Positions 27,001 to 30,000 of a stretch of DNA of 30,405 nucleotides are shown here, piece by piece. The position numbers were made by a program. Each line of letters opens with the position of its first letter. Position 1 is the stretch's first letter. This DNA is from a virus (Duplodnaviria; Heunggongvirae; Uroviricota; Caudoviricetes), in the IMG/VR virus record IMGVR_UViG_2778261453_000018, one strand, 5' to 3'.

Positions 27001-30000
27001 CGGTGTGGTGGATGCCTGGCAGAACGCCTACCGTTACTACGTTCCCCTGAAAGGTCAGGATGTTGACGGTGTGGTGTCACTTCCCCGTACAGGTAAGGGC
27101 TTCACCATCGGCGGACGTGAAAGCAGGCAGGCCATGGGGCGTGCATCCCGTGCACAGTCTCCGTCCACTCAGGCGATACAGGACCTGAGCGAATCGCTGA
27201 TCCGCCATCGCAAAAACGAAGTGGGTAACGCCTTCCTGAAACTGGTGCAGGATAATCCCGACAAGGATTACTGGCAGGTATTCACCGATGACAGACCGGA
27301 TACCATGCGGACGATTGCAGAGCGCAAGGACCAGGAAACTGGTGAAACCATTCGCGAAGTTGTCGAACGCCCTGTACCGATGGCAATGATGGCAGACCGG
27401 TACTTCACCACCAAAAAGAACGGCAAAACGTACTACATCAAACTCCATGATCCGCGCCTGATGCGTGCGATGAAGAATATGGGACCGGAAACCAGTAACG
27501 CCGTAATCCGCACGCTGGGGAAAGTTAACCGCTTCCTGGCAACGGTGAACACGTCGTATAACCCGGAATTCCTGGTCAGTAACTTCATCCGTGACGTGCA
27601 GACGGCGGTGATGAACCTGAAGGCGGAGCAGGGAAGGAGCGACGGCAAACTGAAAGGGCTGGATAACTTATCCGCACTGGCTGTGGTGAAAGACAGCCGG
27701 TCTGCCATGTCTGCCGTATACGCCAGTCTGCGTGGTAAAACCCTCACGGGCAACGGTGCGCAGTGGCAGAAGGTGTGGAAAGAGTTTGTTGAGGACGGAG
27801 GTAAAACCGGCTGGTTTAACATGGGTGACCTTGAAGGCCAGCAGAAGGAAATGGATCGCCTTGTATCGCTGGCGAAGGGAGGATGGAAAGGCCAGAGTAT
27901 CGGTGCATGGAATTCGTTCCTTAACCTGGTCGAGGATGCCAACGGCGCGGTTGAAAACGCACTGCGTCTGTCAGCTTATAAACACGCCCGTGATGCCGGT
28001 TTGTCACGCCAGCAGGCGGCGTCTCTTGCCAAAAACATGACGGTGAACTTTAACCGTCGTGGTGAGCAGGGGGCGCTGATGAACTCGCTGTACATGTTCG
28101 CCAACGCCAGTATTCAGGGAACGGCAAATCTGGTGAGAACGCTCGGACATCTTAATGGTGAGGGACCTTTACTGGAGCGCCTTCGCTGGAAGAATCTGAA
28201 TGTTCCGCAGAAAATCGCGCTTGCCGCTGTGGGAGCAGGTTATCTGCTTGGCTCGCTTAACCGCAGCGTGGCGGGTGAGGATGATGACGGGGTTAACTGG
28301 TATGACAAGGTGCCGTCTCATGTGAAAGAGCGTAACCTCGTCATTATGAAATCGGTGTTCGGGGGCAAGGCCGGAGAGTACTGGAGTATTCCTCTGCCTT
28401 ACGGGTACAACGTTTTCTTCCTGCTCGGGCATACCGCTGAAGGTGTGGCGGCGGGTGACCTGACGGCGTCCCGTGCTGCCGGTAATGTTGTTGGTGGTGT
28501 GCTTGGTGCATTCAGCCCGATTGGCAGTGAGACGTCGGAAACACTGTCCGGGGCATTGCTGAAAAATGCAGCGCCGACCATTCTGCGTCCGTTTGCGAAC
28601 CTTGCCATGAATGAAAACTTCATGGGGGCGCAGATTTACCAGGAGAACATGCCGTTTGGTACACCAAAACCTGACAGCCAGCTGGGAAGACGTTCAACGC
28701 CAGAAGCGTACAAGGCGTTTGCATCCTGGCTGAATGCGTTCTCAGGTGGCAGCCAGTACCGTCCCGGCGCGGTGGATATCACACCGGAATCGCTGAAATT
28801 CTGGATTGACTATATCTCCGGAGGGACAGGGCGCTTCATTTCCAAAACCACGGATGCGGCGGTGAAATCGCTGAATGGTATTGATATACCGGAGCAGCAG
28901 GTGCCCTTCCTGGGGAAAATTTCAGGTGAGGTGATGCCGTATGCTGACCAGCAGAAGATGTACGACCGGATGACAGAGGTTGCGCAGTATCACGCAGAGC
29001 TGAAGAGTCTGACCGGTGCAGAAAGAACGGCGTTCATTGACGAGAACAACGGAAAATTGTCGATGAACGGGCTTATGCAGGATACCCGGAAGAGACTGAA
29101 GGATTTGCGTAAACAGCGTGATGCCATTTACGCCGACAGTACTCTCAGTCTGGCGCAACAGTCGGCGATGGTGAAATCGGTTGAGCGGGATATGAAAATT
29201 GCCGTGGATCGGTTTAACCGCGAGTACAACAAAAAAGTGGGAGTGGAGTAAAGAACATGCCCCGTACGGAAGTGCGGGGCATGCTTAACGGGATGTGTAC
29301 ATAAATGGGTACTGATATGACGATTATTTTGGCACTTTATGTATTTAAATCAATGACTTAATACTTACATTCATTATATCCATTTAACTAAGAGGACAAT
29401 GCGGCATGAGTATACCCGCTAATGGACTGCGGGGTAAGTACGCTGCCGCTCGATTGCTTAAACCCTCGCCATTTATGCTGGTTTTTTATCATTTTTCTTA
29501 ATGTTTTCCGCACGTTCTGCTTTTTGGCGTGCTTCTGCTTTACGCTTGTTGCTCATGTCGTTACGAATCTGTGCATGACTCATTAACGCGAAGATAAAGG
29601 TGCCGCCGCAGATGTTCCCCGCTAAAGTAGGTAGTGCGAAGGGCCAGATGAAATCGCTCCAGTGCAGCGTGCCGTTAAACACCAGATAGAGGATTTCAAC
29701 AGAACCGACAACGATGTGGGTGGTGTCACCCAGTGCAATAAGCCAGGTCATCAATATAATCACCACAATCTTTGCCGCACCCGCAGCAGGAAACATCCAA
29801 ACCATAGTGGCGATCAGCCAGCCGGAAATGATCGCGTTGGCAAACATCTCGCTGGGGGTGTTCTTCATCACATCCATGCCGATTTTGACAAATGCATCGC
29901 GAGTTTCTTCATTGAAGATAGGCATATATTCAAATGCCCATGCAGCAATACCTGTCCCGAGAATATTACCCAGCAGCACGACGCCCCATAATCGCATAAG

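Follow-up and report, generated by a model that had tools for sequence, protein, structure and literature searches.

How did a prophage come to lie beside yfdC of Escherichia coli with only the first 24 nucleotides (nt) of the tRNA-Arg gene argW between them, and what became of the rest of that gene? The question is raised by a DNA stretch of 30,405 nt, the IMG/VR virus record IMGVR_UViG_2778261453_000018 (Caudoviricetes), which is called the window here at its full length. A sequence-only reading of the window had noticed the junction, at 29252-29472, and had offered two explanations: either the integrase targets the 5' half of argW and the intact tRNA gene lies at the integrase-proximal end of the prophage, or argW is disrupted in this genome. 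Our analysis supports the first of them. We are highly confident that the region is the attL site of a 933W-like (Sepvirinae) prophage of the Shiga toxin (Stx) type with an integration module of the type known from phage phi24B (vB_EcoP_24B), and in relatives of this prophage argW stands complete at the other end.

The junction within argW

On the minus strand, positions 29397 to 29374 read GTCCTCTTAGTTAAATGGATATAA, which is exactly nt 1-24 of argW in E. coli K-12, and the identity ends at nt 25. The chance expectation for such a 24-mer match is about 2e-10 in both strands of the window (2 x 30.4 kb). The 80 nt upstream of the 24-mer are identical at 79 positions to the spacer between yfdC and argW in K-12, and therefore this is the true argW locus. 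The sequence-only reading had identified the 24-mer as the 5' end of argW and had placed it next to an intact yfdC on the minus strand; comparison with the uninterrupted yfdC-argW locus of K-12 confirmed it on both points. The divergence into AT-rich DNA past the 24-mer was also correctly seen, as the 87 nt of 29287-29373 contain 29.9% guanine plus cytosine (GC) against 51.8% in the whole window.

The stretch 29252-29472 is non-coding and is flanked by two stop codons, one ending an open reading frame (ORF) of 2806 amino acids (aa) on the plus strand and the other a 310-aa ORF on the minus strand. ARAGORN found no tRNA in the whole window, an Rfam scan of 28000-30405 gave no meaningful match, and the window holds no further piece of argW of at least 14 nt besides the 24-mer. 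Inside a phage gene, 13 nt (ATTCCTGCAGGGG, at about 9279-9291 on the minus strand) match the T-arm region of argW; this match is isolated and was taken as chance. The presumed native promoter of argW was kept at the junction, and it is now directed into the 24-nt fragment and the phage DNA behind it. Consensus scans for promoters and terminators made no calls at the junction, where the native promoter, with 8 of 12 matches, stays below the threshold.

Exchange between attB and attP and the regenerated argW

The distal prophage end was inspected in relatives. In the O103:H2 strain 12009 it consists of a 389-aa tyrosine integrase, 195 base pairs (bp), and an intact tRNA-Arg(CCT) gene that is identical to K-12 argW and divergent from the integrase gene, int. 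The O157:H7 locus Z1814 likewise has an intact argW, 75/75 identical to K-12, at 195 bp from the integrase start. The complete genome closest to the window, ERL05-1306 (99.7% identical over 25 kb), carries at its far end the integrase, a P arm identical to that of 12009 at 195 of 195 positions, and argW, again 75/75 identical to K-12. In all three the rest of argW stands behind the integrase-side P arm and the 24-mer, just as the first of the two explanations had supposed. A gene-inactivating insertion, of the kind described as regulated gene integrity or active lysogeny, was also considered and was rejected, argW being regenerated over its full 75 nt in each of these relatives.

The P arm of 12009, the 24-mer and the P' arm of the window were joined to give a predicted attP, which occurs without interruption in 11 phage records, among them P27, Stx2-converting phage 86 and Lyz12581Vzw. 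When attB (K-12), attP (these three phages), attL (the window, 12009 and an O121 phage) and attR (12009) were compared, a clean reciprocal exchange at the 24-mer was seen, base for base. In P27 and phage 86 a T precedes the block as well, which extends the identity to 25 bp, and the 24-mer is single-copy in the compared attP stretch of each of the three phages. The P' arm of the window is identical to that of P27 at 155 of 160 positions and to that of the 12009 prophage at 152 of 160. The GenBank record LC616031 annotates the same 24 bp at both ends as "duplication due to insertion". Among 5426 complete E. coli genomes, the window-type junction occurs in 209 and the junction of int with a full-length argW in 228, and an argW match is present in all. 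The attB x attP to attL + attR relation and the intact argW in relatives are thus observed directly.

A phi24B-type integrase, carrying the domains Arm-DNA-bind_3 and Phage_integrase, is present at the other prophage end in ERL05-1306, 12009 and Z1814, and a Xis is annotated in P27. We propose that this P4-like tyrosine integrase, with its N-terminal arm-binding domain, would recombine an attP of about 340-430 bp with an attB holding argW nt 1-24. The host promoter and nt 1-24 would stay beside yfdC and be joined to the P' arm, giving the attL of the window, and the integrase-side P arm would deliver a new nt 1-24 ahead of chromosomal nt 25-75, giving attR. At a distance of about 60 kb, argW would thus be complete again and unchanged in sequence; it would stand 195 bp upstream of int, with the two genes divergent. 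Because the block lies at the 5' end of the gene, this is the mirror image of the usual tRNA geometry.

In Z1814 and ERL05-1306, one argW is common to two elements, with 195 bp separating its 5' end from the phi24B-type int upstream and 161 bp separating its 3' end from intS of the second element downstream (2655-5413 of the fetched Z1814 stretch and 8445-11203 of the fetched ERL05-1306 stretch). Such a doubly occupied argW gene is a mosaic of phage, chromosome and island DNA.

Arm-type repeats, the crossover and the hairpin

The motif WGTACNCA occurs five times in the 344-bp attP, all copies being direct, at -182, -158 and -147 in the P arm and at +85 and +97 in the P' arm, counted from tRNA +1; its background in the window is 0.08 per kb per strand. 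The two P' copies lie inside the window on the minus strand (Table 1), and phage 86 has them at the same P' positions. Hafnia phage yong2 and Pantoea phage AH07 have the P-arm sites at the same offsets, and yong2 also has those at +85 and +97; the P' arms of the two phages are otherwise unalignable. We suggest that the five direct repeats are probably arm-type integrase sites, and they are treated as candidates in Table 1.

The sequence-only reading had taken a different pair of octamers, forming an inverted repeat, for the recombinase arm sites. Both octamers exist, TACATAAA at 29298-29305 (one position from the 29297-29304 given at first) and TTTATGTA at the position reported for it, but the assignment did not hold. 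Sister phages vary in the arm at 29336-29343, where their minus strand reads TACAGAAA, TACAGAGA or TGCATTAA, so that the inverted repeat as such is probably fortuitous. Of the two octamers, only TACATAAA overlaps a conserved direct WGTACNCA repeat, the +97 site.

The first position of the identity block is tRNA +1 in every case, and its last is nt 24 in the E. coli phages, nt 23 in yong2 and nt 22 in AH07; the last two attP blocks were measured against E. coli argW, and nt 8-25 are nearly invariant across the genera aligned. Everything 5' of the crossover must come from the element to rebuild the tRNA, and the overlap was therefore placed near the 3' edge of the block. Whether strand exchange takes place there, in the region of the D loop (nt 14-21, between GTTA and TAAC), we consider evenly balanced.

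Just past the last phage gene lies a GC-rich hairpin (29256-29283), whose folding energy on the plus strand is -25.3 kcal/mol and on the minus strand -21.1 kcal/mol. The minus strand continues past it with TTCTTTAC, and the hairpin is kept in the divergent P' arm of phage 86. The terminator scan did not call it, its loop being counted as longer than 8 nt. The hairpin may insulate the late genes from transcription out of the tRNA-promoter side, a role that we put forward tentatively; it could be the end of the late operon too.

A promoter carried by the element

If the element delivers the 5' end of argW, it must also supply the promoter. We compared 33 integrase relatives from species-representative genomes, and 20 of them have an intact tRNA-Arg(CCT) gene about 170-200 bp upstream and divergent from int. 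Their integrases are 55-90% identical (68-90% for full-length matches), and they come from Erwinia, Enterobacter, Pantoea, Brenneria, Xenorhabdus, Providencia, Tatumella, Salmonella, Morganella, Rosenbergiella, Proteus, Limnobaculum and Rouxiella. The specificity for the 5' end of argW is limited to these closer relatives, as the integrases at tRNA loci are all at least 55% identical and the full-length ones all at least 68%. More distant integrases (32-64% identical) showed no tRNA in the fetched locus. A 56%-identical paralogue in E. coli SCPM-O-B-8794 (1800-3300 of the fetched stretch), one of a group at 53-57% identity and without a nearby tRNA, adjoins sbcB, which is a known Stx2c-phage site.

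In an alignment of 21 P arms, the conserved parts are three TGTACNCA repeats by the int start (the TGTAC sites), a -35 element TTG and a -10 element TAnnAT, and the surroundings have diverged. In 18 of the 21 sequences, the spacer of the best -35/-10 pair is 18 nt long, and 38-39 nt separate the end of the pair from tRNA +1. This conservation suggests that the regenerated tRNA is likely to be transcribed from a sigma-70 promoter of the element (TTGnnn-18-TAnnAT, with its end 39 nt before +1), which is conserved in relatives from 19 other enterobacterial species.

The hybrid tRNAs kept all 7 acceptor-stem pairs in 21 of 21 cases, and double compensating changes were found at pair 3:70 in Proteus and at pair 7:66 in Brenneria and Limnobaculum. 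Thus the 5' strand supplied by the element is matched to the 3' strand of the host.

These features raise the possibility of a promoter swap. The host promoter, with a GC-rich discriminator typical of stringently controlled stable-RNA promoters, would be left on a dead-end 24-nt stump, and the regenerated argW would be driven by the conserved element promoter with an AT/purine-rich discriminator and a leader of about 30 nt. Lysogeny would then rewire the timing and amount of the AGG-decoding tRNA-Arg(CCU), a consequence that we regard as speculative and rather unlikely. If it is true, elements of this class would need a match to the host 3' acceptor strand, as suggested by the changes at 3:70 and 7:66.

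Weighing the alternatives

Several observations weigh against our account. The window does not extend to the integrase end of its own genome, and even the best complete genome falls short of full identity, at 99.7%. The P' sites of AH07 depart from the WGTACNCA pattern. A consensus promoter scan on the single sequence was unremarkable, with 2 sites against 1.2 expected, and the element promoter is predicted only. Mohaisen et al. (PMC7581858) observed recombination of an attB with 49 bp upstream of the 24-mer but none when this upstream part was only 18 bp long; a minimal attB centred on the D loop does not predict this upstream requirement.

Among the other explanations, the one that survives best concerns a function of the stump rather than its origin. 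The orphan promoter, the 24-nt fragment, the P' arm and the hairpin together might encode a functional chimeric small RNA (sRNA) of about 150 nt in lysogens, with an attP-state copy made from a phage promoter. The presumed promoter is indeed retained upstream, a stable hairpin with a U-rich tail stands about 115 nt downstream on the same strand, and the 160-nt stretch folds with z = -2.9. However, this z-score is due mostly to the terminator hairpin, conservation within the P' arm is lowest in the 60 nt past the core (which agree with phage 86 at 73% and are unalignable in yong2 and AH07), and Rfam gave no match. We consider such an sRNA improbable.

The second explanation of the sequence-only reading was that argW is truly disrupted, either by a prophage insertion without restoration or by later loss of the integrase-proximal end, so that only the 24-nt stump is left. 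The window itself has no tRNA and ends before the other prophage end, and such a loss could be tolerated, as tRNA-Arg(CCU) is one of twelve tRNA species listed as non-essential in Salmonella (bioRxiv 10.1101/2024.04.04.588050). Against this, argW was matched in every one of the 5426 complete genomes and was fused to the P arm of the integrase in 228, the gene is intact at the integrase end of the closest relative, and attP itself holds nt 1-24, which means that restoration is built into the mechanism. A disrupted argW is therefore very improbable.

That the 24-nt identity is coincidental, or that the junction arose from illegitimate or homologous recombination between prophages, has in its favour only that prophage rearrangements are generally frequent in the genomes of E. 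coli strains that produce Shiga toxin (STEC), and it is practically negligible against a 24/24 match with the native spacer, breakpoints as predicted from the free-phage attP and the same junction in 209 genomes.

The prophage and the features of the locus

The attL site stands at the end of the late half of a 933W-like short-tailed prophage, which the window covers with terminase, portal, N4-gp56-type capsid protein, tail fibres, Lom, Hok and an LPD38 giant protein. The window is syntenic with the Stx2a prophage of strain 12009. The giant protein has 2806 aa in the window and 2784 aa in 12009; no exact copy of it was found in a large protein index, and this allele is absent from the collections searched. 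A 46-aa ORF of Hok/Gef type (MSQKSLITVTICMTVIF..., 17465-17605, plus strand), downstream of a Lom-like ORF at 16498-17232, encodes a putative toxin; its counterpart in the 12009 prophage is annotated as a Hok/Gef gene.

In ERL05-1306 (NZ_CP032803.1), the interval from the Q antiterminator to the SASA esterase gene (33836-35037 of the fetched stretch) has no annotated stx genes, and the region homologous to this interval is located upstream of window position 1. The argW prophage of the window may be an stx-negative 933W-like phage.

Table 1. Features of the prophage-chromosome junction in the window
Feature	Position	Strand	Basis
yfdC, intact chromosomal flanking gene	29473..30405	-	310-aa ORF; yfdC annotation in all top E. 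coli matches
Chromosomal B arm: native yfdC-argW spacer with presumed native argW promoter	29398..29472	-	79/80 against K-12
Presumed native promoter: -35 TTACCC, 17-nt spacer, -10 TATACT, GC-rich discriminator CATGCCGC	29437->29432 (-35); 29414->29409 (-10)	-	read from sequence
attL core: argW nt 1-24 (5' acceptor strand, D stem, D loop); 24-bp block of attP/attB, direct repeat of the prophage	29374..29397	-	
P' arm of the phage attachment site, AT-rich, non-coding, from core to stop codon of last phage gene	29252..29373	-	
Octamer TTTATGTA, variable among sister phages	29336..29343	+	
Candidate arm-type integrase site P'1 (AGTACCCA), +85 from tRNA +1	29306..29313	-	WGTACNCA copy
Candidate arm-type integrase site P'2 (TGTACACA), +97, overlapping octamer TACATAAA	29294..29301	-	WGTACNCA copy
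GC-rich hairpin, 12-bp stem, just past last phage gene	29256..29283	.	folding energy
Last prophage gene, 2806-aa LPD38-domain protein of 933W-like short-tailed phages	20831..29251	+	ORF and homologue annotation

Significance

Much of this picture has been published already, namely the 24-bp crossover site, argW as a site of Stx phages, 5'-end/D-loop integration in a tRNA-Arg gene of Klebsiella, and islands with 5' fragments. The additions of the present work are modest and come from sequence comparison: the arm repeats of fixed geometry, the conserved putative promoter carried by the element, and the matching of the acceptor stem. None of these results overturns the current understanding. For annotation, they explain the tRNA stump beside yfdC and show that argW is not lost in such lysogens. 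They also connect two literatures, the phi24B work, in which the site is described as 24 bp, 250 bp upstream of intS and without a tRNA, and STEC genomics, in which the site is argW. Moreover, the WGTACNCA repeats, the element promoter and the block from tRNA +1 to nt 22-24 are concrete targets for dissecting or engineering the integrase.

Comparison with known systems

The sequence-only reading had called the retention of the 5' part of a tRNA gene next to phage DNA unusual. This was fair, yet it is a documented minority class, as the Islander survey reported a 5' tRNA gene (tDNA) fragment in 159 of 3919 islands (PMC4383910). The classical integration that restores the 3' part, with its anticodon-loop, T-loop or 3'-end sublocations, was rejected for the window, where nt 1-24 form the block and a 5' fragment is what was displaced. 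The integrases of that class, such as those of the P4/leuX type and IntS of KplE1/CPS-53, are likewise tyrosine integrases with an arm-binding domain, and the tRNA fragment in their attP also regenerates the gene. The geometry here is the mirror of theirs, since nt 1-24 take the place of a block between the crossover and the 3' end, and a promoter has to come from the element. IntS itself uses the 3' end of argW and shares with the phi24B-type integrase 29% identity over the N-terminal 93 residues only. The dusA-specific integrases (PMC4482086) are likewise directed at a conserved host gene, at its 5' end, but that gene is protein-coding and the integrases belong to a different family.

A closer parallel is found in the arg2 islands of Klebsiella pneumoniae (integrase clade I.d), for which 5'-end/D-loop integration has been reported (bioRxiv 10.1101/2020.11.02.365908). 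By their description, and in another genus, the site consists of the 5' acceptor half, the D stem as well as the D loop, with the element upstream of the tDNA. The junction of the window has the features of this sublocation, and the same layout recurs in the 20 related loci. The occurrence of two elements at the two ends of one tDNA is likewise shared with the arg2 islands, the partner here being the intS element. The integrase of Klebsiella phage Kp4876-4 is 85% identical; the 24-bp core was not found at the ends of that phage record.

Within E. coli, argW is the standard site of Stx2a phages in STEC genomics, and its occupancy has been surveyed (PMC8309913). The Stx2a prophages at argW in O157:H7 clade 8/TW14359, O121:H19, O103:H2 and O111 agree with the window in the locus, the junctions and the last gene, and in the GenBank records of the O121 study both prophage ends bear an annotation of the 24-bp duplication. 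In contrast to these prophages, the closest relative of the window has no stx annotated between Q and the esterase gene.

The integration system itself is already known, and it is that of phi24B (Fogg et al. 2007, 2011; Mohaisen et al. 2020), in which the int/P-arm region is 99.5% identical and the 24-bp crossover block is the same. For phi24B a "24 bp central crossover site", a minimal attP of 350-427 bp and a minimal attB of 62-93 bp were reported, and integration host factor was not required (PMC7581858). This attP length is consistent with the 195 + 24 + about 125 bp of the window-type attP, and integrase-dependent recombination of attP with attB was demonstrated experimentally (PMC3064807, PMC7581858). 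The primary attB was located "250 bp upstream of intS" (PMC5247750), although one sentence in the phi24B papers even gives "~250 bp downstream of intS". These three papers place attB relative to intS and do not mention a tRNA or argW. In the K-12 coordinates, argW occupies 2466309-2466383 and intS starts from 2466545, so that the primary attB of phi24B is the 5' end of argW. Between phi24B and the phage of the window there is no mechanistic difference, and only the cargo and details of the P' arm differ.

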